Below are positions 10,801 through 53,080 of a stretch of 64,000 nucleotides of DNA, piece by piece. The stretch is from an uncultured Bacilli bacterium (GTDB lineage: Bacteria; Bacillota_I; Bacilli_A; RF39; UBA660). A program made the position numbers and the translations under genes. Position 1 is the first letter of the stretch; every line of letters begins with the position of its first letter. Under the pieces are notes generated by a model. That model made no database searches. It was not told the DNA's origin and worked only from the letters and a program-made list of their open reading frames with translations. Location of the stretch: assembly GCA_944350315.1 (NCBI GenBank), contig CALVON010000022.1:9281-73280 (forward strand), given 5' to 3'.

Positions 10801-10950
10801 TTTTTAGTCTTTTTTTACTTTTTTTTAAATTTAATTATCATTTTTTTACTTTTTGCTCCTTTTTTATTTTTTTATAATTATTTTTTTTATTTTTTGTATT
10901 TTGAATAAATCTTTTTTTCATTTTTGTAATTTGATATTATTTTTTTATTA
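10801..10950 (+). other. Helically phased T-tract (intrinsically curved DNA) region upstream of ssb
   Basis: T5-T8 runs start at about 10801, 10810, 10819, 10841, 10850, 10860, 10881, 10890, 10899, 10912 and 10921, mostly 9-10 bp apart. TTTTTTTACTTTT occurs twice, 31 bp apart. Confidence 0.5.
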
Positions 10951-10982
10951 TGTTATTTTTTGTTTGGAAAGGAGGTATATTT

Positions 10983-11384
10983 ATGGTTAATCAAATTATT
11001 TTAGTTGGTAGATTAGTTAAAAATCCCACTCTAGAATTAACAGAAAATGGAAAAAAAATCAGTGTTATTACTCTTGCTGTTCCTAGATCTTATAAAAATG
11101 TTAATGGAGAATATGATACTGATTTTCTAGATTGTACATTATGGACAGGAATTGCTGAAAGTACAAGTGAATATTGCAAGACCGGAGATATTATCGGCGT
11201 AAAGGGAAGGCTTCAATCAAGATTAATTGAAAAAGATGATGGGGCAAAAGTTAAAAAGATGGAAATCGTTGCAGAAAAAGTTAGTTTTCTATCATCTGCA
11301 AAAAATGCAAAAAATAATTTAGATGAAAGTAATAATAGTGATAATAAAGAAGAAAATAATAAAAAAGAAAAAAAGAAAAATTAA
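10983..11384 (+). CDS. ssb: Single-stranded DNA-binding protein paralog without the acidic C-terminal tip
   Basis: OB-fold N-terminus (MVNQIILVGRLVKNPTL...). The C-terminus ends ...NKEENNKKEKKKN instead of D-D-D-(I/L)-P-F. Start at the ATG after GGAAAGGAGG. Not flanked by rpsF/rpsR. Confidence 0.85.
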   Translation: MVNQIILVGRLVKNPTLELTENGKKISVITLAVPRSYKNVNGEYDTDFLDCTLWTGIAESTSEYCKTGDIIGVKGRLQSRLIEKDDGAKVKKMEIVAEKVSFLSSAKNAKNNLDESNNSDNKEENNKKEKKKN

Positions 11385-11837: not shown

Positions 11838-13208
11838 ATGATAGATGTAAATAATTTATTTAAAGATGACTATATTAATAAAGAGGTTGTTGTATGTGGT
11901 TGGATTAGAAACCATCGTAGGCAAAAAGATTTTGGTTTTATTGATTTTAATGATGGAACCTGTTTTAAAAATTTGCAGATTGTATATGATAAAAATTTAA
12001 ATGATTTTGAAAAGATTCAAAAGTTACATATCGGTAGTTCAATTAAGGTGAAGGGAAAAATTATTAAATCAGAAGGTTCTGGTCAGGAAATAGAGATGAA
12101 ACTATTAGATTATACTTTGTTAGGTGATTGTCCAGAAGATTATCCTATTCAACCTAAAAGACATACTAGAGAATTTTTAAGAGAGCAAGCTTATCTTCGA
12201 ACTAGAACTAATTTATTTGGTGCTGTTTTTAGGGTTAGAAGTATAGCGGCATATGCTATCCATAAATTTTTTCAAGATAGAGGTTATGTTTATTTTCATG
12301 CTCCTATTATAACTGCTAGTGATTGTGAAGGAGCTGGAGAGATGTTTCAAATTACTACTTTGGATATGGATAGAATTGCAAAAGATGGCAAAGTGGATTA
12401 TACAAAAGATTTTTTTGGAAAAAAAGCTTCACTTACTGTCAGCGGACAACTGCAAGCAGAGACGTTTGCACTATCATATAAAAAGGTGTATACTTTTGGA
12501 CCTACTTTTAGGGCAGAAAATTCAAATACAAAAACACATGCTTCTGAATTTTGGATGATTGAACCGGAAATTGCTTTTTGTGATTTAGATGGTGACATGG
12601 ATATTATGGAGGATATGTTAAAGTTTGTTGTAAAATATGTTTTAGATAATTGCCCTCAAGAAATGGAATTTTTTGATAAATATGTAGAGAATGGCTTATT
12701 AAAAAAGCTTAATAAGCTTATTAACAGTAAGTTTGTAAGAGTAGATCACGAGGAAGTTATTTCTATTTTGAAAAAAGCAAATGTTAACTGGGAATTTAAG
12801 CCTGAATATGGTGAAGATATTGCTAGAGAACATGAAAAGTATATTACAGAATATTTTGATGGACCAGTATTTATAAAAAATTGGCCTAAGGATATTAAAG
12901 CTTTTTATATGAAACAAAATGATGATGGAAAAACAGTAGCAGCTGTTGATTTAGAAGTTCCTGGTGCTGGCGAATTGATGGGTGGAAGTCAAAGGGAAGA
13001 AAATTATGAAAAACTTCTTACTAGAATTAACGAATTAAATATGGATCCAGCAGATTTTGATTGGTATTTAAATTTAAGAAAATTTGGAGGTTGTATTCAT
13101 TCTGGGTTTGGTATGGGTTTTGAGAGATTACTAATATATTTGACTGGTGTTGATAATATTAGAGACGTAATTCCTTATCCAAGAACACCTGGAAATTGCG
13201 ATTATTAA
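11838..13208 (+). CDS. asnS: Asparagine--tRNA ligase
   Basis: 456-aa class IIb aaRS with an N-terminal OB domain and C-terminal GGCIHSGFGMGFERL... typical of AsnS. Length fits AsnS better than AspS. Confidence 0.85.
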   Translation: MIDVNNLFKDDYINKEVVVCGWIRNHRRQKDFGFIDFNDGTCFKNLQIVYDKNLNDFEKIQKLHIGSSIKVKGKIIKSEGSGQEIEMKLLDYTLLGDCPEDYPIQPKRHTREFLREQAYLRTRTNLFGAVFRVRSIAAYAIHKFFQDRGYVYFHAPIITASDCEGAGEMFQITTLDMDRIAKDGKVDYTKDFFGKKASLTVSGQLQAETFALSYKKVYTFGPTFRAENSNTKTHASEFWMIEPEIAFCDLDGDMDIMEDMLKFVVKYVLDNCPQEMEFFDKYVENGLLKKLNKLINSKFVRVDHEEVISILKKANVNWEFKPEYGEDIAREHEKYITEYFDGPVFIKNWPKDIKAFYMKQNDDGKTVAAVDLEVPGAGELMGGSQREENYEKLLTRINELNMDPADFDWYLNLRKFGGCIHSGFGMGFERLLIYLTGVDNIRDVIPYPRTPGNCDY

Positions 13209-13239
13209 AAAAAATAGAATTTATTTTCTATTTTTTTTT
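13207..13239 (+). terminator. Rho-independent terminator of asnS
   Basis: AAAATAGAA-TTTATT-TTCTATTTT hairpin followed by a T run. Confidence 0.55.
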
Positions 13240-13300
13240 CAAAAATTACCAATTATTTTTTTATTTTTTCTGTTTATAATACTAACAAAAGGAGGTAGAA

Positions 13301-13879
13301 ATGAAAAAATTTATTATTTTATCTATAGTTAGTATTTTATTACTTACTGGTTGCGGTGAAAATATGACCGAAACAATGAGTTGTACTCATGAAAATGAGA
13401 CTGACAATCTTACAGCAAAGATAAAATATGATATCGATTATCAAGATAAAACAGTTAAAAAAGTCAGAATTACATATGATTATGTTCAAAAAAATAATGA
13501 CAATGATAGTGAGCCAAAAAATACTGATGGAATAGACACAGGAACTGATGGCACAACAGAGGATACTCAACCAGATGATGATGGAATTATTGATGGTATT
13601 GTTGGTAGTGCTATTGATCAAATTGTTGGTGATGTTACTGATACAATAATAGATATTGCTGGACTTAAGGATAGACACAGTACTGTTCAAAATAATTACA
13701 ATAATATTAATGGCTTTTCAGTTCAAAATACTACAGATACTGATAATAATTATAAAGTAACTTATGTTATTGATTATGATGTTATTAGTGATGATGATTT
13801 AAAAACATTGAACTTATCTAGAGATATTGATGTTTTAAGAGATAATTATATTTCACAAGGATTTTCTTGTAGTAAATAA
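13301..13879 (+). CDS. Putative lipoprotein (YehR/DUF1307-like) with an acidic D/T/G-rich insert
   Basis: Signal peptide with lipobox LLTGC. The family call is a weak by-eye impression only. Confidence 0.5.
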   Translation: MKKFIILSIVSILLLTGCGENMTETMSCTHENETDNLTAKIKYDIDYQDKTVKKVRITYDYVQKNNDNDSEPKNTDGIDTGTDGTTEDTQPDDDGIIDGIVGSAIDQIVGDVTDTIIDIAGLKDRHSTVQNNYNNINGFSVQNTTDTDNNYKVTYVIDYDVISDDDLKTLNLSRDIDVLRDNYISQGFSCSK

Positions 13880-13958
13880 TATCTCTTTTTTAATTAATTT
13901 TTTTATTGAGTTATCTATTTATTTGTTATATAATAAAAATGAATAGAGGTGTTTTTTA

Positions 13959-16900
13959 ATGGATAAATTTAAAACAATGGATGCTAATGAAGCTGTTAGT
14001 AGTGTCGCTTACAAATTTTCTGAGATTTGTGGAATATATCCTATTACTCCCGCTTCTCCTATGGCAGAAAAAGTAGATTTATTATCCAATTCAGGTGAAG
14101 TAAATTTTTGGAATAACAAAGTTAAAGTTATTGAAATGCAATCTGAAGCTGGTGCGGCTGCCTTAGTACATGGAACTTTACAATCTGGGGTATTAGCATC
14201 AACATTTACGGCAAGTCAAGGTCTTCTTTTGATGATTCCGACTCTTTATAAAATGGCTGGAGAAATGTTGCCTGCTGTCTTGCACGTGGCAGCAAGAAGC
14301 CTTGCTACACATGCTCTTTCTATATTTGGTGATCACCAAGATATATATGCTATTAGGTCTACTGGAGTATGTATGTTATGTTCTGCCAATCCTCAGGATG
14401 CATATAATATGGCTGCTATAGCACATTTATCAGCAATAGAATCTTCATTGCCATTTGTTAACTTTTTTGATGGTTTTAGAACTAGTCATGAAATTGATAA
14501 AATTAAATTAATGGATTTTGAAAAAATTAAAAATTTAATTAATCAAGATGCTTTAAATGACTTTAGGAATAGAGCAATGAATAACGAATCCTTTAATACC
14601 AGAGGTACAGCTCAGAATGATGATATATATTTTCAAAATACTGAAGTTAGAAATAAATATTATACTAATAGTATTGACATTGTATGTAATTATATGAATA
14701 AAATAAATAAAATTACCGGTTCTAATTTTAAACCATTTAATTACTATGGGGATAGTAATGCTGAATATGTGATTGTTGCTATGGGCAGCGTTTGTGATAC
14801 GGTTAGAGAGACTGTTGACTATTTAAATGGTACCGGCTGTAAATATGGATTAGTAGAGGTTCATTTATACAGACCATTTAGTAATAAGCATTTAATAGAT
14901 GTTGTTCCTAATAGCGTTAAAAAAATTGCTGTTTTAGATAGGACAAAAGATGCAACTGCTAGTGGAGAACCTTTATATTTAGATGTAGTATCTGCTTTTG
15001 CTAATTCTAATATTAAAATTTACGGTGGAAGGTATGGTCTTTCTTCTAAAGATACTAATCCTTCGCAAATTAAAGCAGTTTTTGATTTTTTAAAAAGCAA
15101 TCATGTTCATCATAATTTTACAATAGGGATTAATGATGATGTGACTAATTTGTCTTTAGAAGTAGATAATAATTTTTATATTCCTAATGATATGACAGAG
15201 TTTTTAATTTACGGATATGGTTCTGATGGTATGGTATCAACATCTAAAGATATGATAAAGATAATAGGAGATCATACAGAAAAATATGTTCAGGGATATT
15301 TCCAGTATGATTCTAAAAAATCTGGTGGAGTAACACGAAGTCATATAAGAATTTCTAATTGTGAAATTAGAAGTCCATATTATGTTAATAATCCTTCTTT
15401 AATTGTTGTATCTAAGGAAGAATATATTTATAAATATGACATAGTTGATAAACTTATTGATGGGGGAACTTTGCTTTTAAATACAAAATTAGAAAAAGAA
15501 AAGTTAATTAATAGTCTACCTAATAAAGTTAAGTATTTATTAGCAAAGAAAAAAATTAATTTTTATATAATAGATGCTTATAAATTAGTTAATGAATTAG
15601 GACTTAAAAATAAGATTAGCACATGTATGGAAATTTGTATTTTTGATATTATTAAAATTATGGATATTGATGTAGTTAAAAAGATAATGAAAGATTCTAA
15701 CATTAAGCGATTTGCTAGCAAAGGTGAGGATATTATTGATATTAATAATAGAATTGTTGATGAATCTTTAGCTTGGATAAATAAAATTGATATTGATGAT
15801 AGTTGGATTAATTTGAGTTATCAGGAAAAAGAAAATATAAGCTTTGACGAAATGATTGGTCTTCTTCGTGGAAATGATCTACCTGTAAGTTCATTTATTG
15901 ATAAAAAGAGTGGAATTTATCCTGGTGGAAGTACAAAGTTAGAAAAAAGAGATATTGCAGAAAATGTTCCTTGTTGGGAAAAAGATAATTGTATCCAATG
16001 TAATCAGTGTGTATTCGTATGTCCTCATGCGGTAATTAGACCTTATTTGCTTGATAAAGATGATAATTACGATAATTGTTCTCCTAGCATATTTCCTAAA
16101 GATAAGAAATATGCAATTGGAATTAGCTATGAGGATTGTACTGGTTGTGGCCTATGTGCTGATATTTGCCCTGGTAAGGCAGGAAATAAAGCTTTAAAAA
16201 TGCAAAAATATGATAGAAATATTTTTAATAATAATGATTATAATTATTTGAATAATCATAATGTTAAATATGAAAATAATATTTTAAATGTAAAAAATAT
16301 TGGTTTTAAAGAACCAAAGTTTGAATATTCTGGTGCGTGTGCTGGATGCGGAGAAACGGCATATATCAAGAATTTGACGCAGTTATTTAATGATAACTTA
16401 ATTATTGCGAATGCAACTGGTTGTTCTTCAATATACGGCGCAAGCGCTCCATCTACTCCTTATTCAGTGCCATGGGCAAATAGCTTATTTGAAGATAATG
16501 CTGAATTTGGATTAGGTATAAAACAAGGAATAAATATTAAACGTGAAAAGATTAAAAAATATATGGAAAATAATGAATGTGAGCTTTTTAGAAAATGGCT
16601 AGACAACATTAATGACTATAAAGTATGTAAAGATGTATATGAACAAATTGATTTTAAAGAGCATCCTTATTTATTAGAGCTTAAGGATTATATTATTCCA
16701 AAATCAATGTGGATTATTGGTGGGGATGGTTTTGCTTATGATATTGGTTATGGTGGATTAGATCATGTCTTATCTACCAACGAAAATATTAATATACTAA
16801 TTTTGGATACTGAAGTCTACTCTAATACTGGTGGTCAATCTTCAAAATCCAGCAATATTGGGTCAATTGCTTCATTTACTGCTGGTGGCAAAACTAATTA

Positions 16901-31029: not shown

Positions 31030-31158
31030 TAGACATTATATCATAAGTTATATAAAAATAGAACTCATATTTTTATTTTTTTTAGAAATAATAAATATAG
31101 ATGTTATATGTATTAATAAATTATGCTTTTTCCTTTTATTGAAAGGTTGGTTAAATCT

Positions 31159-33123
31159 ATGAAAATATTAAAAAAAATAGGAAAGATTAGTATTATTTTA
31201 CTAGGAATATTTTTATTTGGAAATGTTTGTTTATATATTTATTGTCTAATAACTCCAAAAATTCAAATATCAAAAAATCAGTCTTATTATTTATATGATA
31301 ATAAAAATAATGAAATTTTTAATAATTATAGTTGGGTTTCTCTAGAAGAGATTAGTCCTTATTTGATTGATGCTACTTTATCTACTGAAGATAAACACTT
31401 TTATAATCATATTGGATTTGATTATTTAAGAATAGCTAAGGCTATTTTAAAAAATATTGCTTCTGGTAGTTTGTCAGAGGGCGCTTCTACCATAACGCAA
31501 CAATATGCTAAAAATTTATATTTAACTTATGATAAAACATGGAAAAGAAAAATTGAGGAAGCAATACTTGCCTTTGAGCTTGAAACACATTATACAAAAG
31601 ATGAAATTTTAGAAGGATATTTAAATACTATAAATTATGGTGGTGTTTTTGGTATTGAAAATGCTTCACAATATTATTTTAATAAATCTGCTAAGGATTT
31701 AAATTTGGCAGAAGCTTCAATGCTTGCGGGAATTCCTCAATCACCATCAAATTATTCACCTTTATATAATGAAGAATTAGCAAAAAAAAGGCAAAAAACA
31801 GTTTTAACTTTAATGTATAATAATGATAAAATAGATGAAGATGAACTTAATCAAGCTTATAATGAAAAATTAACTTATTCTGGAAATAAAAATTCAGAAA
31901 TTACTTCTGGGTTAATGTACTTTAAAGATGCTGTTTTAAATGAACTATTACAAATACCTAACATTCCTGATTCACTATTAACTACTGGTGGTATTAAAAT
32001 ATACACTACTTTAGATAGTACAGCTCAAGCTGTGTTGGAAAAGTCTATTGATGATAAGGATATGGGAGAGTTACAAATTGCAGCAATAATGATGAATCCA
32101 AATAATGGCGATGTCTTAGCTTTAGTTGGTGGGACTGATTACAATGCTAGTCAATTTAATCGGGCTATATCTGCTAAAAGACAAGTTGGCTCTACAATGA
32201 AACCTTTTTTATATTATGCTGCTTTAGAAAGTGGATTTACTTCAGCTTCTTCTTTTATTAGTGAAAAAACTACTTTTTCTTTTTCAAACAATAGTACTTA
32301 TACTCCGAAAAATTATAATGATAAATATGCCAATGGACCTTTATCTATGGGTGCTGCTATAGCTTATTCCGATAATATATATGCTATAAAAACACATTTA
32401 TTTTTGGGTGAAGAAAAATTAGTTTCAATTTCTAATAGACTAGGTATCGATAATAATCTTTCTGCTGTTCCTTCTTTGGCTCTTGGTACTGAGGAAATAA
32501 GCTTAATGAATATGGTTTCTGGATATTCTTCATTTGCTAACATGGGTAATAAAATCAATGGTCATTTAATCAAAAAAATTGAGGATAGTAAAGGAAATAT
32601 ATTATATGAATTTGAAGAAAAAAAGGTTAATATTTTGGATGAAAGTTTAGTTTATATTCTTAATGAGATGTTAACTTATACGTATGATCAAAGTTTTATT
32701 GACTATAATTATCCTACTTTAATCAGTTTAGCTCCAAGAATGAGTAATAAATATTCTGTTAAATCGGGAACGACTAATACTGATATGTGGATAATAGGTT
32801 ATAATAAAAATGCTGTACTTGGTGTATGGACTGGATATGATGATAACAGAAATTTTTCTAGTGAAGTATCAAATTTTCATAAAGATATTTGGATTGAAAC
32901 GATGGAAAATTATTTAAAAGACAAAGATAATACTTGGTATGATGCTCCAGATAATATAGTAGGGGTATTGGTAAATCCAATTACTGGGGAATTAATTGAT
33001 AATGAAGAAGAGAAGGGAAAAATATTTTATTTTTTAAGAGGTACTGAGCCTTATGTTGGAGATAAATATAACTTTGATTCTGTCTTTAATCAAAATGATA
33101 CCGATAACATAATTGAAAATTAA
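31159..33123 (+). CDS. Class A penicillin-binding protein (glycosyltransferase + transpeptidase)
   Basis: GT51 motifs (EDKHFYNHIGFD, GASTITQQYAKN). Transpeptidase motifs STMKP, SDN and KSGTT. N-terminal TM anchor. Start is the ATG at 31159 or upstream at 31123. Confidence 0.9.
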   Translation: MKILKKIGKISIILLGIFLFGNVCLYIYCLITPKIQISKNQSYYLYDNKNNEIFNNYSWVSLEEISPYLIDATLSTEDKHFYNHIGFDYLRIAKAILKNIASGSLSEGASTITQQYAKNLYLTYDKTWKRKIEEAILAFELETHYTKDEILEGYLNTINYGGVFGIENASQYYFNKSAKDLNLAEASMLAGIPQSPSNYSPLYNEELAKKRQKTVLTLMYNNDKIDEDELNQAYNEKLTYSGNKNSEITSGLMYFKDAVLNELLQIPNIPDSLLTTGGIKIYTTLDSTAQAVLEKSIDDKDMGELQIAAIMMNPNNGDVLALVGGTDYNASQFNRAISAKRQVGSTMKPFLYYAALESGFTSASSFISEKTTFSFSNNSTYTPKNYNDKYANGPLSMGAAIAYSDNIYAIKTHLFLGEEKLVSISNRLGIDNNLSAVPSLALGTEEISLMNMVSGYSSFANMGNKINGHLIKKIEDSKGNILYEFEEKKVNILDESLVYILNEMLTYTYDQSFIDYNYPTLISLAPRMSNKYSVKSGTTNTDMWIIGYNKNAVLGVWTGYDDNRNFSSEVSNFHKDIWIETMENYLKDKDNTWYDAPDNIVGVLVNPITGELIDNEEEKGKIFYFLRGTEPYVGDKYNFDSVFNQNDTDNIIEN

Positions 33124-33127
33124 TAAA

Positions 33128-33156
33128 AAAATATGTAATTATTAGTTACATATTTT
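33128..33156. terminator. Bidirectional terminator between convergent PBP and parB/noc-like genes
   Basis: AAATATGTAA-TTATTAG-TTACATATTT hairpin flanked by A and T runs. Confidence 0.55.
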
Positions 33157-34597
33157 ATAATTCTATTATAATACAGTGACCTGTATCATTATTATAAAGT
33201 TTATATTGAATTTGATTTTGATTTAAAAATTCTGTTACTTTAGTTAAATTATTTGTTGGTTCTTGTGTATTAGTTGTTACAGGAACTTCATAATTTGTTA
33301 AATCTGAAACTTGAGTCTGTGGTTCATTTTGATTTGGCTGTGTTTGAGTTTCAGATATAGAAAATAGTGGTGTATCTTGAACTATATTTTCTTGTATTGG
33401 TTGTTCTATGTTTGGCACATTTACAACTTCTTGGTTGAATAGCGGTGTATCTTGTGTACTTTGTTGTGAAGTATTTAAATTTTGATTAGCACTAACTTGT
33501 GAATTAATATCTTGATTTGACTGTTCTATATTTTGTTTTGGCATTTGATCCGCTTGATTTAAAGATGGTTCTTGTGGTGGTATAGTCTGTTGTGGTTCTT
33601 GTACTGAATTATTTACACCAATATTAAAATCTGGAATTGGATTTGTTGTAGAAAAATCAAATAATGGTTGTGTTTGTTCAATATTTTGCATAGATTGATT
33701 ATCTTGATTTTGTATGCCTGGTTGTGAAGACGGTTGCATAGGAGTTACATTTTGTGTCAATGATTCTCCTACTGGATTAGCCGTAGGCATTACTGTTTCA
33801 TTTATTGGTTGAGAATTAATACTTTGCATATTTAAAGTATTTAATGAGGCACTATTTGTTGGGTTCATTTGAGCATTATAGTTTGGAAAAAAGTTTCCAT
33901 TATTCATATTATCACTTTCCTTTTCTTCTTTTTTTGTTTCTTTACTACCAATTGAATTCATTATGTTACTAATAGTGGTTTCAATTGGAATTTTTTCATT
34001 ATTTTGTTTTTTAATAATTTCATTTAGTTCTTTAACAGATAATTTTTCATTAATTATTCTTTCTAACAATAATAATTTTTTTTCATTATCCAAAACACAT
34101 AATAGACTTCTAGCATGCCTTTCACTAATTTGTTGATTATTAAGCGCTTCTTTGATTTCTTTTGGTAATGTTAACAATCTTAATTTATTTGCTATTGTTG
34201 ATTGAGATTTTCCAATTTTATCTCCTAAATCTTTTTGTGTAACATTCGTAAGCTCTATTATTTGTTTAATAGATTCGGCTTCTTCAAGTGGGGTTAAATT
34301 TTCTCTTTGTAAATTTTCTATTAATGCCATTTCTGCCATTTTTATATCTTCAATATTCTTTATAATTGCCGGAACTTTTTTTAGGCCAATTTTTCTAGCA
34401 GCACGCCATCTTCTTTCTCCTGCTATTATTTCATATTTATCATTTGTTTTTCTTACTAATATTGGATTTATTATTCCATATTCTTTAATTGATTTAGCAA
34501 GACTATCTAATGATTCTTCATTAAATTCCTTCCTAGGTTGGTATTTATTTGGCATTAACTTATCTACATCGATTTCTATTATTTTTTCCTCTTGCAA
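33155..34597 (-). CDS. ParB/Noc-family CTP-switch DNA-binding protein with a Noc-type recognition helix and a long Q/N/P-rich C-terminal extension
   Basis: ParB N-domain boxes (YQPRK, GERRWRAA). HTH GKSQSTIANKLRLLTLP...ISERHARSLL. TTG start after AGAGGTGG, with an in-frame TAA 15 nt upstream. Residues ~215-450 are low complexity. The gene sits downstream of rsmG, the noc position in B. subtilis. Confidence 0.85.
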   Translation of the reverse strand: MQEEKIIEIDVDKLMPNKYQPRKEFNEESLDSLAKSIKEYGIINPILVRKTNDKYEIIAGERRWRAARKIGLKKVPAIIKNIEDIKMAEMALIENLQRENLTPLEEAESIKQIIELTNVTQKDLGDKIGKSQSTIANKLRLLTLPKEIKEALNNQQISERHARSLLCVLDNEKKLLLLERIINEKLSVKELNEIIKKQNNEKIPIETTISNIMNSIGSKETKKEEKESDNMNNGNFFPNYNAQMNPTNSASLNTLNMQSINSQPINETVMPTANPVGESLTQNVTPMQPSSQPGIQNQDNQSMQNIEQTQPLFDFSTTNPIPDFNIGVNNSVQEPQQTIPPQEPSLNQADQMPKQNIEQSNQDINSQVSANQNLNTSQQSTQDTPLFNQEVVNVPNIEQPIQENIVQDTPLFSISETQTQPNQNEPQTQVSDLTNYEVPVTTNTQEPTNNLTKVTEFLNQNQIQYKLYNNDTGHCIIIEL

Positions 34598-34691
34598 TAT
34601 ACCACCTCTTTATTCTATATATATAATACATTATATTTTTTTTTTTTTCAATGTTTTTTATATATTATTTTTTTATTGAACTATTTTTTGT

Positions 34692-35396
34692 CTACATTAT
34701 ATCATTTTTTTTGATTTGAGAATACTGTCTTGGGTACTTCTTTGCAGTAACATTATATTTTTCGACTTTGTATATTGTTCTTAAACTATTTTCAGATGGT
34801 AATTGAAATTGAATTATTGTTTCATTTTTTAATGATAATTTTTTGTAGTATTTATCAATATTCTTCATTTCATCAGTAATATTTGACTTTAAGGCAATAA
34901 ATGTGCCATTTACTTTTAACATAGGAATAGAGTATTCTAAAAGATGTTTTAATGGTGCTACTGCTCTTGATGTAACAATATCATATTTTTCACGATTTTC
35001 TTTAGAATAAACTTCTGCTCGTTTATTAATTATTTTTACTTTTTCTAATTGTAATTCTTCTACTATTTTTGTTAAAAATATACATTTTTTTGTTGTTGAA
35101 TCTAGTAAAGTAACATCTAATTTTGGAAAAAATATTTTTAAAACAATCCCTGGAAATCCAGCACCTGTTCCTACATCTATTAGTGATTGGTTATCTAAAT
35201 CAACTATTTTTGTTATAGTTAATGAATCAAAAAAATGTTTTAAAAAGACTTCTTTTTTATCTGTTATAGCTGTTAAGTTATATTTTTTATTCTCTGTATA
35301 TAGAATTTCATAGTATTTTTCTAATTTTTGAAGCATTTCTTCTGTGTATTTAATATTTAATTTTTTTATTTCATTAATAAATTGTTCTTTATTCAT
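34692..35396 (-). CDS. rsmG: 16S rRNA (guanine527-N7)-methyltransferase RsmG (GidB)
   Basis: SAM-binding motif DVGTGAGFPG. Synteny mnmE-mnmG-rsmG. Confidence 0.9.
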   Translation of the reverse strand: MNKEQFINEIKKLNIKYTEEMLQKLEKYYEILYTENKKYNLTAITDKKEVFLKHFFDSLTITKIVDLDNQSLIDVGTGAGFPGIVLKIFFPKLDVTLLDSTTKKCIFLTKIVEELQLEKVKIINKRAEVYSKENREKYDIVTSRAVAPLKHLLEYSIPMLKVNGTFIALKSNITDEMKNIDKYYKKLSLKNETIIQFQLPSENSLRTIYKVEKYNVTAKKYPRQYSQIKKNDIM

Positions 35397-37260
35397 TGTA
35401 TTTCTTCCTTAAATATACTAATAATATTGAAATATCCGATGGATTGACACCACTTATTCTTAGTGCTTGGCCAATTGTTGTTGGATTTATTTTTGATAAT
35501 TTTTGTCTCGCTTCACTTGCTAAATTGGGAATTAATTCATAGTTAATATCTTTTGGTATTTTCTTTTCTTCTTGTTTTAGCATTTTTTCGGCTTCTTTAT
35601 TTATTTTATTTATATAACCTGAATATTTTATTTCTATCTCTACTTGTTCCATTACATCATCTAGATATATTTCTTTAATAATATTTAATTTTTTTAAAAT
35701 GTTTATATCTATTTCTGTTCTTTTTAGTAAATCATATAACGTAATTGAATCTTTAATTGGAGCACTTTTTATTGCTTTTAACATACTATTAACATTTGTT
35801 GTAGGATTTAATTTATTTTCTTTTAAATACTTTGAAAATAAATCAATCTCTTTTAGTTTATGCTGAAATTTTTGATAACGTGGTTCTTTTATTAATCCTA
35901 CATCATAACCATATTTTGTTAATCTAATATCTGCATTATCATGTCTTAAAAGTAAACGATATTCTGCTCTTGAAGTTAACATTCTGTATGGTTCTGTTGT
36001 TCCTTTTGTTACTAAATCATCAATTAATACACCAATATAGGCTTCATTTCTTTTTAAAATCAATGGTTCTTTATTGTCGATTGCTAAGGCTGCGTTTATT
36101 CCCGCAATAATTCCTTGGCCAGCGGCTTCTTCATAACCACTTGTTCCATTTATTTGACCTGCTGTATATAAATTTTTTAGAATTTTAGTTTCTAGTGATC
36201 TAGTAACTTGAGTAGGGGAAATAGCATCGTATTCTATCGCATAAGCATATTTTGTAATAATTGCATTTTTCATTCCTGGTAATGAATGAACCATTTTTTC
36301 TTGAACATCTCTTGGCATGGATGTTGAAAATCCTTGGAGATACATATCGTCATAATAAATACTTTCTGGTTCAATAAATAATTGGTGTCTTTCTTTATCA
36401 GAAAATCTTACTATTTTATCTTCAATAGATGGACAATATCTTGGACCTACCGTTCCTTCTGTTACATAACCGCCGTACATAGCAGATTTATTTAAATTTT
36501 CTAAAATTATTTTCTTAGTTAAATCAGTAGTATAAATTAAATGACATGGTATCTGTTTATTCGTATCATAAGTCATTTGTTCTTCAGTATTAAAACAATA
36601 ACATTCTTTATCTCCTAATTCTTCTTTTGTTTCTAAGAAATTAATTGTTGATTTTTTAATTCTTTGAGGAGTTCCTGTTTTTAATCTTAAAATATTAAAA
36701 CCATATTGTTTTAATTTATCAGATAAATATAGAGATGGTTTTTCATCGTGGGGACCACTTCTTTTTCTTTCATCTCCAATTAATATATCTGATTTTAAAT
36801 ATGTTCCAGTAGTTAAAATTACTTTTTTACTTAATATTTTTGTATTGTCAAATAAAATAACACCCCGTACTTCTTTATTTTCAACAATTAAATCTTCTAC
36901 CATCGATTCTAATAATGTTAAATTTTCTTGATTTTCTAGTGTTTTTAACATTTCTTTGGGATATGTTACTTTATCGACTTGTGCTCTTAGTGATCTAACA
37001 GCAGGACCTTTGGATGAATTTAACATTTTCATTTGAAGAAACGTTTTATCTGCTATTTTTCCCATTTCGCCACCTAAAGCATCTATTTCACGAACGATAA
37101 TTCCTTTGGCAGATCCTCCAATAGATGGATTACATGGTAGACTTGCGACATTTTTTAAATTTGCAGTTATCAATAAAGTTTTTTTACCTATTCTTGCTGA
37201 TGCTAAAGCTGCTTCACATCCAGCATGACCAGCTCCTACTACAATTATATCATAATTCAT
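35389..37260 (-). CDS. mnmG: tRNA uridine 5-carboxymethylaminomethyl modification enzyme MnmG (GidA)
   Basis: FAD motif YDIIVVGAGHAGCEAA at the N-terminus. Start set at MNYDII (37260). Confidence 0.95.
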   Translation of the reverse strand: MNYDIIVVGAGHAGCEAALASARIGKKTLLITANLKNVASLPCNPSIGGSAKGIIVREIDALGGEMGKIADKTFLQMKMLNSSKGPAVRSLRAQVDKVTYPKEMLKTLENQENLTLLESMVEDLIVENKEVRGVILFDNTKILSKKVILTTGTYLKSDILIGDERKRSGPHDEKPSLYLSDKLKQYGFNILRLKTGTPQRIKKSTINFLETKEELGDKECYCFNTEEQMTYDTNKQIPCHLIYTTDLTKKIILENLNKSAMYGGYVTEGTVGPRYCPSIEDKIVRFSDKERHQLFIEPESIYYDDMYLQGFSTSMPRDVQEKMVHSLPGMKNAIITKYAYAIEYDAISPTQVTRSLETKILKNLYTAGQINGTSGYEEAAGQGIIAGINAALAIDNKEPLILKRNEAYIGVLIDDLVTKGTTEPYRMLTSRAEYRLLLRHDNADIRLTKYGYDVGLIKEPRYQKFQHKLKEIDLFSKYLKENKLNPTTNVNSMLKAIKSAPIKDSITLYDLLKRTEIDINILKKLNIIKEIYLDDVMEQVEIEIKYSGYINKINKEAEKMLKQEEKKIPKDINYELIPNLASEARQKLSKINPTTIGQALRISGVNPSDISILLVYLRKKYNE

Positions 37261-37268
37261 TTTATCAC

Positions 37269-38609
37269 TTACTTTCCTAAACAAAATCTAGAAAATATTT
37301 CATCTATTAATTCTTCTTTATAGGTTTTTCCAATTATTTCTCCTAAAATATTCCAACATTCTTTTAAATCTAATTCAATCATATCAATTGGATATTTTTT
37401 AATGTTATTAAGACTTTTTTCTATGCTTTCTTTAGATTTTTTTAATAATGAAATACTTCTAGCACTACTTAAATATGTTAAATCGTTTGTTTCTATTTGT
37501 TCTAAATTAAATATCTCTATTATTTTTTGTTTCAAACTTTCTAGTCCAATATTTTCTTTTATACTAATTTTGATAACTTCGTTTTCTGATATTTCTAGAT
37601 TATTTTTTAAATCTATTTTGTTTATTACAACTATATGTTTTTTATTTTTTATTTGATTTAAAATTTCTATGTCTTCTTTAGTTAATTTTTCATTATTATT
37701 TAATAAATATATTATTAAATCTGATTTCTTTATTATTTCATAACTTTTGTCTACTCCTATTTGTTCAACAATATTATCTGTTTTTCTTATTCCAGCTGTA
37801 TCAATTATATTACAGACTATTCCATTTAATATAAATTTTCCTTCGACAATATCTCTTGTTGTTCCTTCAATATCGGTAACAATTGCCTTATCTTCTTCAA
37901 TCAAATAATTTAAAAGGCTACTTTTTCCAACGTTTGGGCGTCCAATTATTCCTATATTTATACCTTCTTTAATAATTTTTCCTGATTCTGATTTTTTTAT
38001 TATTTCATCGATATTTTCTTGTATTTCTTTTAATTTTGGATATATTTTTTTATTTGTTAATACTTCAATATCTTCGTATTCAGGATAATCGATATTTACT
38101 TCGATGTTACTGATTATTTCTAATAATTTTTGGCGAAGGTTTTCAATAAGATTTGAAACATTTCCTGTTAATTGATTAATTGATAATTTTCTTCCTACCT
38201 CTGTTTTGGCTTCAATTAAATTCATTATTCCTTCTGCTTGTGTTAGATCAATGCGTCCATTTAAGAAGGCTCTTTTGGTAAATTCTCCTGGTTCTGCTAA
38301 TCTAGCACCATTTAATAATAATAGTTCTAAGACTTTATTTGTAGTAATTATCCCTCCATGACAATTTATTTCTACAACATTTTCTTTTGTGAATGTTTTT
38401 GGAGCTAACATTATACTTATTAAAACTTCATCAATTATTTGATTTTTATCAATTATATGACCGTAATGAATTGTATGAGTTTTAGCATCTTTTATATTTT
38501 TATCAAATATTTTATTAACTATTTTTATTGCTTCTGGACCACTTACTCTAATTATTGAAATAGCTCCTACACCTAAAGTTGTCGAAATGGCTGCAATTGT
38601 ATCTTCCAT
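37269..38609 (-). CDS. mnmE: tRNA modification GTPase MnmE (TrmE)
   Basis: G-domain motifs GRPNVGKSS and DTAG. C-terminal CLGK (CxGK) motif. Confidence 0.95.
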   Translation of the reverse strand: MEDTIAAISTTLGVGAISIIRVSGPEAIKIVNKIFDKNIKDAKTHTIHYGHIIDKNQIIDEVLISIMLAPKTFTKENVVEINCHGGIITTNKVLELLLLNGARLAEPGEFTKRAFLNGRIDLTQAEGIMNLIEAKTEVGRKLSINQLTGNVSNLIENLRQKLLEIISNIEVNIDYPEYEDIEVLTNKKIYPKLKEIQENIDEIIKKSESGKIIKEGINIGIIGRPNVGKSSLLNYLIEEDKAIVTDIEGTTRDIVEGKFILNGIVCNIIDTAGIRKTDNIVEQIGVDKSYEIIKKSDLIIYLLNNNEKLTKEDIEILNQIKNKKHIVVINKIDLKNNLEISENEVIKISIKENIGLESLKQKIIEIFNLEQIETNDLTYLSSARSISLLKKSKESIEKSLNNIKKYPIDMIELDLKECWNILGEIIGKTYKEELIDEIFSRFCLGK

Positions 38610-40838: not shown

Positions 40839-42599
40839 ATGTTTGAGAAAATTTTATCAATTACAAAAAATTATGCTATTGTTAAAATTATAAATAATAT
40901 TAATGATGACATATTAAATTATAATGTTATTCTTGAAGATAATTATAAAAAAATTTTAGGTGAAATTGATGAGATTATTAACGATGAAGTAAAAATTTCA
41001 TTTTTAGGTGAATTTATTAATGATAGATTTTATAGTGGAATAATTAGAAGACCTTCTTTATCTTCTACAGTTAGAATTATTAACAAACAAGAATTAGGAG
41101 AATTAGTTGGTGATAATGATAGTAGAACTATGATTCTTGGTCTTAGTCCTTTGTATAATAATTATCCAATAAAGATAAATATTAATGAAATGTTTAGTAA
41201 TCATATCGCTATTTTTGGAAATACAGGTTCAGGTAAGACTTGCGGTGTAGCAAGAATTATTCAAAATTTATTTAATATGAAAGATAAAGTTCCTTTTAAT
41301 GGAAATATATTTATATTTAATAATACTTCTGAATATGATTCCGCTTTTAGAGAAATTAATAAAATTAATAGTAATTTTAATTATAAATTGTATACAACCG
41401 ATAAAAGTAATTCTGATGGTGAAGAGATAAAGATTCCTTTATGGATTATGAGTGCTGATGATTATGCTAATTTATTAGATGTTACTGAATTTTTTCAAAT
41501 TAACATAATTGAAAAAATGTTAAGTATTGTTTCTATTTTTGCTAGAAATGATGAATATGCTAATAAATATAAAAATCATTTAATTGCTAAGGCAATAATT
41601 TCCGTTTTATATTCCAATCAGGTTCCTGCAAAAATAAGGGATCAAATTTTTAACATTTTACAAGACTGTTATACGAATGAAATTAATTTAGATGCTGAGG
41701 TTCCAGGAATAGGATATACTAGAGAATTTAGAAAATGTTTTGACATAGATAATAATGGTGATTTTGTAGAGAGAATATTAGTTACTAAATATATTCAAAG
41801 TTTTATTGTTAAAAATGAAAATTGGAATGAAGATTATGTTCCTATTTATTTTAATTTAGATCAATTAGAAAGTGCTTTGAATTTTACTCTAATCAGTGAA
41901 GGATTATTATTAAACGAAAAGTCTTATAGTGAAGCAATCGCTTTAAAAGTTAAATTACACTCTATAAACAATAGTTCAAATAAAAGATTTTTTGAAGTTA
42001 ATAATTTTATTTCGACTGAACAATTTATTAATTCTTTATTAACTACTAAAAATAATGGTAGGGCTCAAATTATAAATTTTGTTTTAGAGGATATTGATGA
42101 TCGTTTTGCAAAATCTTTGGTAAAAATATTATCAAGAATATTATTCAATTTTGTAAAAAAAATACAACCTAGAGGTGCTTTTCCAATTAATATTATGCTA
42201 GAAGAAGCACACAGATATGTTCAAAAAGATAGAGATACAGATATTTTAGGATATAATATTTTTGATAGAATTGCTAAAGAAGGAAGAAAATTTGGGGTAA
42301 TTATGAGTCTGATTTCTCAAAGACCTACAGAATTATCAGAAGTTGTTTTATCTCAATGTTCTAATTTTATTATTTTTAAATTAAATCATCCTAGTGATTT
42401 AGAATATATAAAGAAGATGGTACCAAATATTAGTTCTGATGTTATTGAAAAACAAAAATCCTTACAATCTGGAACTTGCGTTGTTTTTGGTAGAATAATG
42501 AGAATACCAATGATTGTTAAAATGCAAATGCCTAATCCAGAACCTCAAAGTTCAAATGCTTCTATATATGATAAATGGATGGTAGAACAAAAATATTAA
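40839..42599 (+). CDS. HerA/DUF87-like P-loop ATPase (HAS-barrel + FtsK/HerA-type ATPase), orphan
   Basis: 586 aa. Walker A FGNTGSGKT, Walker B-like INIMLEEAHRYV, and SLISQRPTELSEVVLSQCSNFIIFKL typical of DUF87/HerA. Extended -10 TGTTATAAT lies about 30 nt upstream. No NurA, SIR2 or nuclease partner adjacent. Confidence 0.7.
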   Translation: MFEKILSITKNYAIVKIINNINDDILNYNVILEDNYKKILGEIDEIINDEVKISFLGEFINDRFYSGIIRRPSLSSTVRIINKQELGELVGDNDSRTMILGLSPLYNNYPIKININEMFSNHIAIFGNTGSGKTCGVARIIQNLFNMKDKVPFNGNIFIFNNTSEYDSAFREINKINSNFNYKLYTTDKSNSDGEEIKIPLWIMSADDYANLLDVTEFFQINIIEKMLSIVSIFARNDEYANKYKNHLIAKAIISVLYSNQVPAKIRDQIFNILQDCYTNEINLDAEVPGIGYTREFRKCFDIDNNGDFVERILVTKYIQSFIVKNENWNEDYVPIYFNLDQLESALNFTLISEGLLLNEKSYSEAIALKVKLHSINNSSNKRFFEVNNFISTEQFINSLLTTKNNGRAQIINFVLEDIDDRFAKSLVKILSRILFNFVKKIQPRGAFPINIMLEEAHRYVQKDRDTDILGYNIFDRIAKEGRKFGVIMSLISQRPTELSEVVLSQCSNFIIFKLNHPSDLEYIKKMVPNISSDVIEKQKSLQSGTCVVFGRIMRIPMIVKMQMPNPEPQSSNASIYDKWMVEQKY

Positions 42600-42610
42600 T
42601 AACTTTTAAA

Positions 42611-42626
42611 TATTTCCCGGGAAATA
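42611..42626. promoter_or_regulatory. Perfect Noc-binding-site (NBS)-type palindrome TATTTCCCGGGAAATA
   Basis: 16-bp perfect palindrome identical to the published NBS consensus (ATTTCCCGGGAAAT core). The only CCCGGG in the 64 kb that I could find. Followed by a GGGAAAT half-site repeat and T6, so it may also act as the terminator of the herA-like gene. Confidence 0.6.
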
Positions 42627-45778: not shown

Positions 45779-46228
45779 ATGTGCGAAATTGATTTATCAA
45801 CAGTTATGTTGATAGGAATTGATGATTATAATACTAAAATTATTAGTTATGAAAAAGAAGAAGTAATTAATAAAAATTCAAAAGAATTAATTAATTTATC
45901 ATGTAAATTTTTTGGTAGTAGTTTAAATGATAAGATTAGTGTAACAAAAAGATTAATAAATATTTCTTCAAAATCGCCAATTATTATAGAGGAATCTAGA
46001 AATATTATTTTTTTTCCATTAAAATCAACTAGAGAAAAAAATAATATATGGATATCTTTTAATAATTTAGAAAAGTATGAGAAAAATAATGATAATACAA
46101 TTTTATATTTTAAATGTGGAAAAATAGTTAAATTAAATTTTTCTTACTACATAATAGATAACCAAGTAACTAGAAGCTTAATTTTAGATTATGAATTGAA
46201 TAAAAGAAAAAAAAGTTTAGAAAAATAG
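45779..46228 (+). CDS. comK: ComK-family competence transcription factor (short form, 149 aa)
   Basis: By-eye alignment to B. subtilis ComK: SCKFFGSS vs SCRFFGSS, SKSPIIIEESRNIIFFPLKS vs SHKPPIMVDPSNQIFLFPTLS, NIWISF vs GWISH, IIDNQVTRS vs FENQVYRT. RBS AAGGAGGGGG. Confidence 0.75.
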   Translation: MCEIDLSTVMLIGIDDYNTKIISYEKEEVINKNSKELINLSCKFFGSSLNDKISVTKRLINISSKSPIIIEESRNIIFFPLKSTREKNNIWISFNNLEKYEKNNDNTILYFKCGKIVKLNFSYYIIDNQVTRSLILDYELNKRKKSLEK

Positions 46229-51933: not shown

Positions 51934-51975
51934 AACTCAATTATAATGTTCCACGTGGAACATTATAATTGAGTT
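51934..51975. promoter_or_regulatory. parS-1 (core 51947-51962) in a perfect 42-bp palindrome; also the gyrA terminator
   Basis: AACTCAATTATAATGTTCCAC|GTGGAACATTATAATTGAGTT followed by TTTTTTATTTTTTTTT. Confidence 0.85.
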
Positions 51976-52180
51976 TTTTATTTTTTTTTATAAAGAAATT
52001 TAAAGAATATTTATGTTAATAATTTATTATATTTATGTTTTTATATGTTGTAATATTTAATTTTTATATTTAATATTGTTTATATTATTATAATATTAGT
52101 TTATTTATATTCTGTTAGATATTATTATAGTTAATTTATTATCTTTATTTAATTTATTATAATGTGAAAATATATTATTC

Positions 52181-52340
52181 AAAAAAATTATTTTAGTTGT
52201 CAATTGTTAAATAATTATTTATGTGAATTACAATGTTCCACGTGGAACATTGTAATTTAAATTTTATTATTACAAATTTTGTTTATAAAATGTTTATATA
52301 TAAAGATTGTAATATTAAATTCATAATAAAATAATTATTT
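52181..52340 (+). repeat. Direct repeat unit A (~150 bp) containing parS-2
   Basis: Aligns by eye with 52826-52980. The central ~75 bp is near-identical (TGAATTACAATGTTCCACGTG[G/A]AACATTGTAATTTAAATTTTATTATTA...). Shared AAAAAAATTATTTTA start and ATTAAATT(C/T)ATAATAAAATAAT end. Confidence 0.7.
52226..52257. promoter_or_regulatory. parS-2 (core 52234-52249) in a perfect 32-bp palindrome
   Basis: AATTACAATGTTCCAC|GTGGAACATTGTAATT. Confidence 0.85.
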
Positions 52341-52359
52341 TATTTATATATATTTTCTT

Positions 52360-52379
52360 AATGTTCCACGTGGAACATT
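52360..52379. promoter_or_regulatory. parS-3 (core 52362-52377) in a perfect 20-bp palindrome
   Basis: AATGTTCCAC|GTGGAACATT. Confidence 0.85.
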
Positions 52380-52540
52380 CCAGTTGAAATTTTTTTCTCT
52401 AAAGAGTAAAAAAAATATTATATTATTTACAGTTGATTAAGTATTATTTTAGTTGTTTTATTATATATATTTAGTAAATAGTATATATTTTATACTATAT
52501 TTATTTAAATGCCGTGTTTTTACAATTCATGTAATATTAG

Positions 52541-52568
52541 TTATAATGTTCCACGTGGAACATTATAA
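52541..52568. promoter_or_regulatory. parS-4 (core 52547-52562) in a perfect 28-bp palindrome
   Basis: TTATAATGTTCCAC|GTGGAACATTATAA. Confidence 0.85.
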
Positions 52569-52610
52569 AATGCAGATAAAAATTTTTAATAAGTTATATT
52601 GAATTTATTA

Positions 52611-52639
52611 TTGCGTTTTTTGATATTTTAGTATATAAT
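52611..52639 (+). promoter_or_regulatory. Sigma-A-type promoter of ffs
   Basis: TTGCGT (-35), 17-nt spacer, TATAAT (-10). The predicted start at about 52646 coincides with the 5' end of the SRP RNA helix. Confidence 0.5.
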
Positions 52640-52645
52640 TATGTT

Positions 52646-52716
52646 GTGCAACAATAATATAGAAATCAAGTCAGGATCGGAAGATAGCAGCTTTAACTAT
52701 TAATTATTGTGTGCAC
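52646..52716 (+). ncRNA. ffs: Small (4.5S-like, ~71 nt) signal recognition particle RNA
   Basis: Domain IV motif AAGUCAGGAUCGGAAGAUAGCAGCUU (compare GUCAGGUCCGGAAGGAAGCAGC) with a GGAA tetraloop closed by AUC/GAU. Closing helix GUGCAACAAUAAU / AUUAUUGUGUGCAC, followed by T5. Position upstream of tadA-dnaX approximates the B. subtilis tadA-scr-dnaX region, although scr lies between tadA and dnaX there. Confidence 0.75.
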
Positions 52717-52748
52717 TTTTTATATGTTCCACGTGGAACATATAAAAA
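52717..52748. promoter_or_regulatory. parS-5 (core 52725-52740) in a perfect 32-bp palindrome abutting the ffs 3' end
   Basis: TTTTTATATGTTCCAC|GTGGAACATATAAAAA. Confidence 0.85.
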
Positions 52749-52825
52749 TAAACGTCAATTAATATTTTTTAATTAATTTATTTAAAATTATTATTATGTG
52801 TATTTAAATTGTTATAATATAAAAT

Positions 52826-52980
52826 AAAAAAATTATTTTAATTATTAAATTGATATTTATATGAATTACAATGTTCCACGTGAAACATTGTAATTTAAAT
52901 TTTATTATTATAATTCTTGTTTATTACAGGTTGATGTATAGAAAATATAGTATTAAATTTATAATAAAATAATATATAAT
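52826..52980 (+). repeat. Direct repeat unit B (~150 bp) containing parS-6
   Basis: Partner of 52181-52340. Confidence 0.7.
52864..52895. promoter_or_regulatory. parS-6 (core 52872-52887, TGTTCCACGTGAAACA)
   Basis: AATTACAATGTTCCAC|GTGAAACATTGTAATT. One arm mismatch yields the asymmetric B. subtilis-type parS. Confidence 0.85.
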
Positions 52981-53048
52981 ATTTGTAAAATATGTATAAC
53001 ATTTTTTTTGTTGTGTTAAATTTGTGCTTTTAGATTTTATAAATATAT

Positions 53049-53080
53049 TTATTTAATGTTCCACGTGAAACATTAAATAA
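53049..53080. promoter_or_regulatory. parS-7 (core 53057-53072, TGTTCCACGTGAAACA)
   Basis: TTATTTAATGTTCCAC|GTGAAACATTAAATAA. One arm mismatch. Confidence 0.85.

Follow-up and report, generated by a model that had tools for sequence, protein, structure and literature searches.

Which DNA sites are read by a ParB-family protein whose gene occupies the classical position of noc, but which carries neither the N-terminal membrane-targeting helix of Noc nor an adjacent soj-spo0J pair? The question is raised by a 64,000-nt stretch of DNA from an uncultured Bacilli bacterium (GenBank assembly GCA_944350315.1, contig CALVON010000022.1, positions 9,281 to 73,280), in the following called the window. 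It encodes such a protein of 480 amino acids (aa) at 33155..34597 on the minus strand, starting with TTG. A sequence-only reading had described the product as a Noc/ParB hybrid and as the sole ParB-family protein, a new functional variant that would bind Noc-binding sites (NBS) or both NBS and the partition sites parS. Our comparison with related contigs and loci (L-numbers; L006-L014 are nine GTDB genomes) leads to a different view, which we consider likely to be correct as a whole: the gene would encode a helix-less Noc-type clamp that binds cytidine triphosphate (CTP) and reads NBS, while parS would be read by a separate ParB encoded outside the window.

Family placement and DNA-binding residues

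The window protein is recognised by Pfam as ParB_N (PF02195, 125.9 bits, aa 5-97) followed by the helix-turn-helix domain HTH_ParB (PF17762, 106.7 bits, aa 99-199), and its best NCBIfam model is TIGR04285 (nucleoid_noc) with 269.4 bits. Against Geobacillus Noc (7NFU, 7NG0) the N-terminal 217 aa reach 205 bits, against B. subtilis Noc (7OL9) 181 bits and against Spo0J (6SDK) 168 bits. A neighbour-joining tree (BLOSUM62, a distance method), built from 41 sequences aligned over 200 conserved aa, placed all proteins of the Q..R type including the window protein apart from Spo0J, with support from 100 of 100 bootstraps. On average the window protein shares an identity of 0.61 with members of its own clade, 0.53 with other helix-less proteins, 0.52 with Bacillaceae Noc and 0.41 with Spo0J, and its closest match in the protein database is at most 64% identical.

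The recognition region QSTIANKLRLLTL...ISERHAR is encoded at 34109..34204 (minus strand). Alignment to 7OL9 and 6SDK places its residues Q132, K138, T143 and R160 at positions 173, 179, 184 and 201, giving the specificity residues Q-K-T-R. According to published work these four positions are R-T-A-G in ParB and Q-K-K-R in Noc, and R173 and G201 are reported to be invariant among ParB orthologues (PMC7383237). The window protein has Q and R at these two positions. The sequence-only reading had given the region as GKSQSTIANKLRLLTLP...ISERHARSLL, which is indeed present in the translation, and the B. subtilis Noc and Spo0J strings that it quoted match 7OL9 and 6SDK residue by residue. Its account of the four positions and of the Noc-type residues was likewise borne out by the alignment, whereas its view of T184 as a ParB-like signature was not. 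For NBS-specific reading, Q173 and R201 need only one lysine, at either 179 or 184 (PMC7383237, Jalal et al. 2020), and K179 suffices for this. Moreover, position 184 is occupied by H, K, N or Q in those of the 120 nearest homologues that are Bacillaceae Noc proteins with the helix. Thus, T184 represents ordinary variation and not a relic of ParB.

Both CTP-binding boxes, GERRWR (aa 60-65) and ENLQR (aa 94-98), are present (34304..34420, minus strand; alignment to 7OL9). R63 and N95 of the window protein align with R89 and N121 of B. subtilis Noc, which are required for CTP binding and spreading (PMC8429893). Within the N-terminal 200 aa, 70 positions are invariant across the clade, the CTP- and DNA-contact residues among them.

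The likeness to Bacillales Noc (B. subtilis YyaA and Geobacillus Noc; TIGR04285; 7NFU, 7NG0, 7OL9, 6Y93) extends to the arrangement of a ParB_N CTPase domain, a helix-turn-helix domain and, putatively, a small C-terminal domain, with 49-53% identity over 200 aa and a place in the same clade of the tree. Chromosomal ParB/Spo0J proteins (6SDK; Helicobacter pylori 4UMK; Caulobacter 6T1F) share the two-domain CTPase-clamp architecture at 38-47% identity, and canonical parS are found in the window. Unlike them, the window protein lies on a separate branch, has no adjacent parA and begins with MQEEKIIEIDV, without the LG(K/R)GL-type motif for interaction with ParA; the canonical Spo0J sequences compared begin with ..LGKGL. 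By alignment and phylogeny the window protein is a Noc orthologue and a predicted Noc-type DNA clamp, not a hybrid of ParB and Noc. A hybrid or dual-specificity reading was considered and dismissed on account of the phylogeny, the variability of residue 184 in true Noc proteins and the published specificity rules.

Absence of the membrane-targeting helix in a Noc-type subfamily

The start region (34598..34612, minus strand) contains a TAA (34610-34612) and the Shine-Dalgarno sequence AGAGGTGG (34602-34609) ahead of the TTG, the coding strand reading TAA AGA GGT GGT ATA TTG. The TAA is in frame and lies 15 nt ahead of the start, leaving no space for a membrane-targeting helix at the N-terminus. 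This direct reading agrees with what had been stated earlier on the open reading frame (ORF), its start and the upstream stop. The protein begins five residues ahead of ParB_N; the amphipathic membrane-targeting helix alpha1 (approximately aa 1-10), helix alpha2 and the connecting loop, all found in Bacillales Noc, are absent. The same holds for the orthologues in the clade. All of them start a few residues from the ParB domain and have an in-frame stop upstream or no earlier start codon, with 0-25 codons between the upstream stop and the start of the domain.

Beyond the clade, 117 of the 120 nearest homologues could be classed for the helix. The helix-less form accounts for 86 of the 117, with specificity residues QK[T/A/N/S]R, and a helix of the type MKxxFSRLFG was found in about 27. 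By comparison, the N-terminus of the aligned Bacillaceae Noc proteins has MKHPFSRLFGFG and a spacer. In two low-GC gut Bacilli (L002, L166) helix-less Noc-type genes are located directly before a canonical soj-spo0J pair. Furthermore, five loci of Clostridia (Terrisporobacter, Tepidibacter, Alkalithermobacter, Alkaliphilus) have a helix-less QK[KR]R paralogue of about 261 aa ahead of a spo0J gene of the RxxG type; soj was also visible in four of the five, the Alkalithermobacter locus listing the RxxG spo0J only. These genes of Clostridia and of L002 and L166 resemble the window gene in starting at the ParB N-domain (e.g. MEEKIVIEIPVDKII, MNLEKEIFDISL), in their Q..K..R residues and in their position after rsmG. 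They differ in being mostly followed by soj and the RxxG spo0J, whereas the window gene is followed by a convergent gene for a penicillin-binding protein (PBP). They are uncharacterised and usually annotated as generic ParB/Spo0J family.

Absence of the helix is therefore a trait of a large uncharacterised Noc-type subfamily and not of the window gene alone, and the functional variant proposed earlier is not peculiar to this gene. This contrasts with the current picture, in which the helix was present in all Noc homologues examined (PMC4331003), was treated as specific for Noc, and its removal in NocN-delta-10 left the protein unable to support nucleoid occlusion (PMC8429893). The helix-less set spans low-GC gut Bacilli and Clostridia and retains the NBS-reading residues, and NBS sites are conserved in the clade of the window. 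Together with the published data, its distribution points to a widespread, possibly ancestral helix-less state, the membrane helix being a feature of Bacillales. If confirmed, this would set an order for the evolution of Noc, with duplication, a switch in DNA specificity and later the gain of a membrane tether in Bacillales. It would also raise the question of what role an NBS-loaded CTP clamp plays without a membrane anchor.

Two classes of binding sites in the origin region

A site search revealed two classes of sites that the sequence-only reading had not mentioned. A perfect 16-bp NBS (TATTTCCCGGGAAATA) is located at 42611..42626 and is the sole match with up to three mismatches in the 64 kb. 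It is set off by 12 bp from the preceding HerA-like (DUF87) gene and by about 330 bp from dnaA, upstream of which it borders a cluster of TTATCAACA-type repeats resembling DnaA boxes by eye. The window contains one perfect copy of the site cognate to Noc (ATTTCCCGGGAAAT). Seven perfect parS are found at 51947..53072 in the 1.25 kb of non-coding DNA that separate gyrA from tadA, about 17 kb from the noc-like gene. Five of them are TGTTCCACGTGGAACA (starting at 51947, 52234, 52362, 52547 and 52725) and two are TGTTCCACGTGAAACA (starting at 52872 and 53057). Six of the seven are embedded in longer AT-rich palindromes with 6-11 bp per arm, while the site at 52362 is extended by 2 bp only. Estimated from base composition, the window would contain by chance about 1e-4 perfect parS and about 1e-5 perfect NBS.

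The same 16-mer NBS is kept in this slot in ten relatives, among them L001, L004, L006, L007, L008, L010 and L011 with a perfect copy and L005 and L014 with one mismatch. In L099, L101 and L115 it is also found at an equivalent distance upstream of gyrA. The noc-like proteins of the relatives with the conserved NBS are only 41-64% identical to the window protein, and the persistence of the site across such divergent proteins provides comparative evidence that the window protein reads NBS, as had been predicted. By blastn L006 corresponds to L115, and L001 and L007 to L099, at an identity of at least 99%. The same species thus combine a helix-less noc without adjacent soj-spo0J, an NBS on the dnaA side and parS past gyrA.

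A set of 80 related contigs was chosen by similarity of GyrA (68-85% identity; the best metagenome GyrA match has 85%). About 70 of them carry one to nine parS just past gyrA, most at least two, and many also have a perfect NBS there. In total the 80 contigs contain 295 pure parS and 87 pure NBS; half-site hybrids make up 3 of the 385 sites, and chimeras of parS and NBS were not found among them. About one quarter of the NBS lie within 60 bp of a parS, often at 21-30 bp. Several related lineages have composite modules in which a perfect NBS is paired with a parS, 21-30 bp from start to start, e.g. TATTTCCCGGGAAATAATTTTCCACAATGTTTCACGTGAAACA. Such modules were seen in L125, L127, L128, L129 and L133 (around 12604-13976), in L130-L132 (around 12625-12647) and at L107:11291, L165:13180 and L154:9348. 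They suggest side-by-side loading of two distinct ParB-family clamps. The position of the NBS next to the DnaA-box-like cluster at oriC and beside parS would, if confirmed, suggest an origin-centred role.

Some further features of these sites were observed. The first parS is the centre of a perfect 42-bp palindrome (51934-51975) right behind the gyrA stop codon, and a run of T residues follows to about 51990. The first parS therefore doubles as the hairpin of an intrinsic gyrA terminator. A second terminator-like parS hairpin is located at 52224-52259. In the middle of the array lies a gene for the small bacterial signal recognition particle (SRP) RNA (52637-52740; Rfam RF00169, 58.6 bits), the 3′ end of which overlaps the parS at 52725-52740. 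A 134-nt parS-bearing segment is duplicated (52202-52335 and 52840-52973, 85% identity, 638 nt apart), indicating that segmental duplication accounts for at least part of the growth of the array. The sequence TATTCCACGTGGAAAT at 9790-9805 within an Amidase_3 gene combines a parS-like core with NBS-like outer bases in an imperfect palindrome and probably occurs by chance. The HerA-like ATPase gene (40839-42599, 586 aa), directly behind whose stop codon the conserved NBS is situated, lies between rpmH and dnaA, and its position is kept in L001, L004 and L005.

Search for a second ParB

Two readers are the simplest explanation for two classes of conserved sites that are so cleanly separate, and the reader of the seven parS is most likely a second, canonical ParB from another part of the genome. 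The window gene therefore probably shares the genome with at least one other ParB-family gene. For the 64 kb the earlier statement of a sole ParB-family gene without a soj-spo0J partner is correct, as a six-frame motif scan revealed no second ParB-family ORF and no ParA, Soj or MinD ORF, and phmmer searches with Soj and Spo0J against all window ORFs of at least 40 aa detected no ParA and no second ParB. For the genome the coexistence of pure parS and pure NBS arrays makes it unlikely.

The related low-GC gut Bacilli L169-L173 have their soj-spo0J pair far away from noc. The pair adjoins dut and a PGA_cap gene in L172 and L173. In three low-GC loci of Bacilli or Erysipelotrichales-like origin it is situated directly after pssA-psd (L169:7704-10885, L170:7714-10894, L171:7763-10873), which represents a conserved site outside the origin cluster.

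Several approaches were used to find a Spo0J belonging to the clade. A homologue search with the Spo0J of L002 returned close relatives of L002 only. From 150 clusters of Spo0J-type proteins (representatives at 50% identity), ranked by AT-rich amino-acid composition, 20 were looked up and none could be tied to the clade. A profile built from eight AT-rich candidates led to six contexts, comprising one phage-like ParB, four unlinked soj-spo0J pairs and one classical noc-soj-spo0J arrangement, again none tied to the clade. Tetranucleotide signatures were tried for assigning Spo0J contigs and were discarded as non-discriminating, known non-members outscoring members. A ParB annotated from Massilimicrobiota timonensis (L168:10001-10897) is surrounded by many small unknown ORFs and by genes for RtcB, a DNA ligase, a Toprim protein and an endonuclease. 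Such surroundings are phage- or mobile-element-like and not those of a chromosomal partition locus.

Linker and C-terminal domain

An AlphaFold2 model based on 89 sequences is confident for residues 1-200, with a predicted local distance difference test (pLDDT) above 90 for most of residues 30-200. These residues are followed by an additional predicted amphipathic helix at aa 205-216 (..TTISNIMNSI; 33950..33985, minus strand; pLDDT about 65), conserved in the clade as AISDIMKSL. With 0.52 its hydrophobic moment is the highest within residues 201-480 and compares to 0.43 for the membrane helix of one Bacillaceae Noc. Next comes a linker of about 233 aa with a high content of N, Q, P, T and S (aa 217-449; 33251..33949, minus strand), which is predicted to be disordered (pLDDT below 50 through most of aa 221-449) and has no counterpart in Bacillales Noc.

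Apart from short motifs the linkers of the orthologues cannot be aligned. In the window these motifs are NMNNGNFFPNY (33878-33910), three copies of xxPLFxx (33653-33673, 33431-33451 and 33356-33376), NPIPDF (33626-33643) and YEVPVT (33275-33292), all on the minus strand. The orthologues in L006, L007, L010 and L012 and the C-terminal half of the split gene in L001 carry the same motifs. Across the clade they take the forms ISNIMNSI/AISDIMKSL, EEKExDNMNNGNFFPN[YF], NPIP[DT]F, [DQE]xP[LV]F in two to three copies and [SY][YF]E[VI]P[VI]T. The D-x-P-x-F pattern presumably resembles the C-terminal peptide of FtsZ, in three residues. The clade has linker motifs of its own; the Clostridial forms are too short for such a linker.

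The protein ends with a small beta domain (aa 450-480, ..LTKVTEFLNQNQIQYKLYNNDTGHCIIIEL; 33158..33250, minus strand), for which AlphaFold2 predicts strands within residues 451-479 at a pLDDT of 65-80. It was aligned by eye with the ends ..YQIIIEIDK and ..YIQLTIKIPK of family members and Bacillaceae Noc. The TIGR04285 alignment extends as far as model position 244 of 255 with no rise in score, and over the C-terminal domain there was no significant match to a hidden Markov model. We regard the domain as the putative counterpart of the Noc/ParB dimerisation domain.

Proposed mode of action and alternative explanations

On the basis of its cognate residues and the conserved NBS beside oriC, a dimer of the window protein would nucleate on the 16-bp NBS palindrome. 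With the intact GERRxR and ENLQR boxes it could bind CTP, close into a clamp and slide over the neighbouring origin DNA, as judged from its conserved residues and by analogy with Noc and ParB. Having no intrinsic N-terminal membrane anchor, it would be unable to act exactly as B. subtilis Noc does. Any link to the membrane, the divisome or replication might run through motifs of the 233-aa linker or through helix 205-216, which is speculative.

Some observations weigh against this reading. DNA binding, CTP binding, clamp formation and the absence of membrane binding are predictions from sequence. A canonical ParB was found neither in the 64-kb window nor within about 10 kb of noc in 12 loci of the clade, and in the 80 clade contigs neither ParA nor ParB lies within about 10 kb of gyrA. 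No Spo0J-type protein could be tied to the clade, and the second reader is thus inferred. In addition, with 269 bits on TIGR04285 the window protein stays below the NCBI cutoff of 315 for Noc. Deletion of the linker did not bring the protein past the cutoff, the score staying essentially the same at 269.0 bits. Helix-less relatives score 293-296 bits, and the true Noc P0096 reaches 380.8. Since scores of 269-296 all fall under the cutoff, helix-less proteins are likely annotated as generic ParB, which could mislead the inference of partition systems in genomes from gut metagenomes.

The missing partner genes could be taken to mean that the window gene is the sole ParB-family gene and that its product reads both the parS array, as a centromere or SMC-loading protein, and NBS, without ParA. 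Such a protein would be a living example of a dual-specificity state that deep mutational scanning suggested evolution had avoided. It would account for the lack of another ParB or ParA in the 64 kb around oriC and in origin-proximal DNA of about 90 relatives, for the lack of a located canonical ParB in the clade, and for parS and NBS being interleaved in one non-coding region, 21-30 bp apart in several lineages. We nevertheless regard it as improbable. Q173, K179 and R201 constitute the NBS-specific set, while dual-specificity variants have T or S at 201 in most cases (PMC7383237). The same Q-K-T-R helix occurs in L002 and L166, which have canonical soj-spo0J, so that there is no sign of re-tuning where the adjacent pair is absent. 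The site classes are cleanly bimodal with almost no hybrids, which also makes the suggested binding of both NBS and parS unlikely; soj-spo0J is simply elsewhere in related lineages; and the window protein has no ParA-stimulating LGKGL-type N-terminus. An even less credible explanation, a decaying and functionless remnant of noc left after break-up of the ORI cluster, could draw on the orthologues that are split into two ORFs within the linker in the metagenome assemblies L001 (204 and 269 aa; L001:10001-11432), L004 (286 and 152 aa; L004:10001-11350) and L005 (231 and 263 aa; L005:10001-11484). L007, of the same species as L001, has an uninterrupted ORF, so that the splits resemble frameshifts introduced when repetitive sequence was assembled; the pseudogene interpretation was rejected for this reason. 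In the window the gene is intact, tblastn gave full-length matches in nine of nine GTDB genomes (L006-L014), and the ORF was read without interruption in L006, L007, L010 and L012. The 70 invariant positions and the conservation of the cognate NBS likewise speak against decay.

A working nucleoid-occlusion factor, in which the link to membrane or divisome has moved to helix 205-216 or to D-x-P-L-F motifs contacting FtsA or SepF, appears rather doubtful to us. The predicted helix exceeds a Bacillaceae Noc membrane helix in hydrophobic moment, it is kept together with NMNNGNFFPNY and xPLFx across orthologues whose linkers are otherwise unalignable, and the organism is walled and sporulating (PBP, SpoIVA), making control of the division site relevant. 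However, the helix has modest model confidence, the likeness to the FtsZ peptide is limited to three residues, and the NBS cluster at the origin within the origin-proximal DNA surveyed. Furthermore, the helix-less forms of Clostridia offer little room for a long linker and are conserved all the same; the ancestral helix-less function was therefore probably independent of such a linker. Somewhat more plausible, yet still tentative, is the idea that helix-less Noc represents the ancestral form, an origin-proximal CTP clamp beside ParB that serves, for instance, replication initiation or control of the origin. It fits an NBS that abuts DnaA boxes and lies 21-30 bp from parS, and if true the switch in DNA specificity preceded the gain of the membrane helix in Bacillales. 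Noc of S. aureus reportedly controls replication initiation, as the title of a paper has it (PMC5540599). Among these explanations we prefer that of a helix-less NBS-reading clamp with a separate ParB for parS.

Genomic surroundings of the noc-like gene

The window represents the oriC region of a spore-former with 25.7% GC. The noc-like gene lies 3′ of mnmE-mnmG-rsmG, the classical noc slot, with rsmG at 34692-35396, mnmG at 35389-37284 and mnmE at 37269-38609 (34692..38609, minus strand; Pfam GidB, GIDA and TrmE_N/MnmE_helical). In the place usually taken by soj-spo0J after noc, a convergent class A PBP gene is found (31123..33123, plus strand; Pfam Transgly and Transpeptidase). Pfam thus supports the gene order on both sides as first described. 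The same junction between noc and the PBP gene occurs in L001, L004, L005 and L167. An ORI cluster with noc has been described, and noc was inferred in the ORI cluster of the Firmicutes ancestor (Garcia et al. 2021, PMC8136486). The window gene is thus a member of the widespread but uncharacterised helix-less Noc subfamily; the disordered linker of its product is unusual, and its ORI cluster is dislocated.

The order of genes in the window is nusA ... spoIVA ... argS, the PBP gene, the noc-like gene, rsmG, mnmG, mnmE, jag, yidC, rnpA and rpmH, followed by the HerA-like DUF87 gene, dnaA, dnaN, comK, recF, gyrB, gyrA, SRP RNA, tadA, dnaX, recR ... mfd. The ComK-family gene (45779-46228) between dnaN and recF, found likewise in L167, is unusual for a dnaA-dnaN-recF cluster. 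A gene for the single-stranded DNA-binding protein SSB (10950-11384) is located between an amidase gene and a gene for a helix-turn-helix regulator instead of rpsF and rpsR, and is possibly a second SSB copy.

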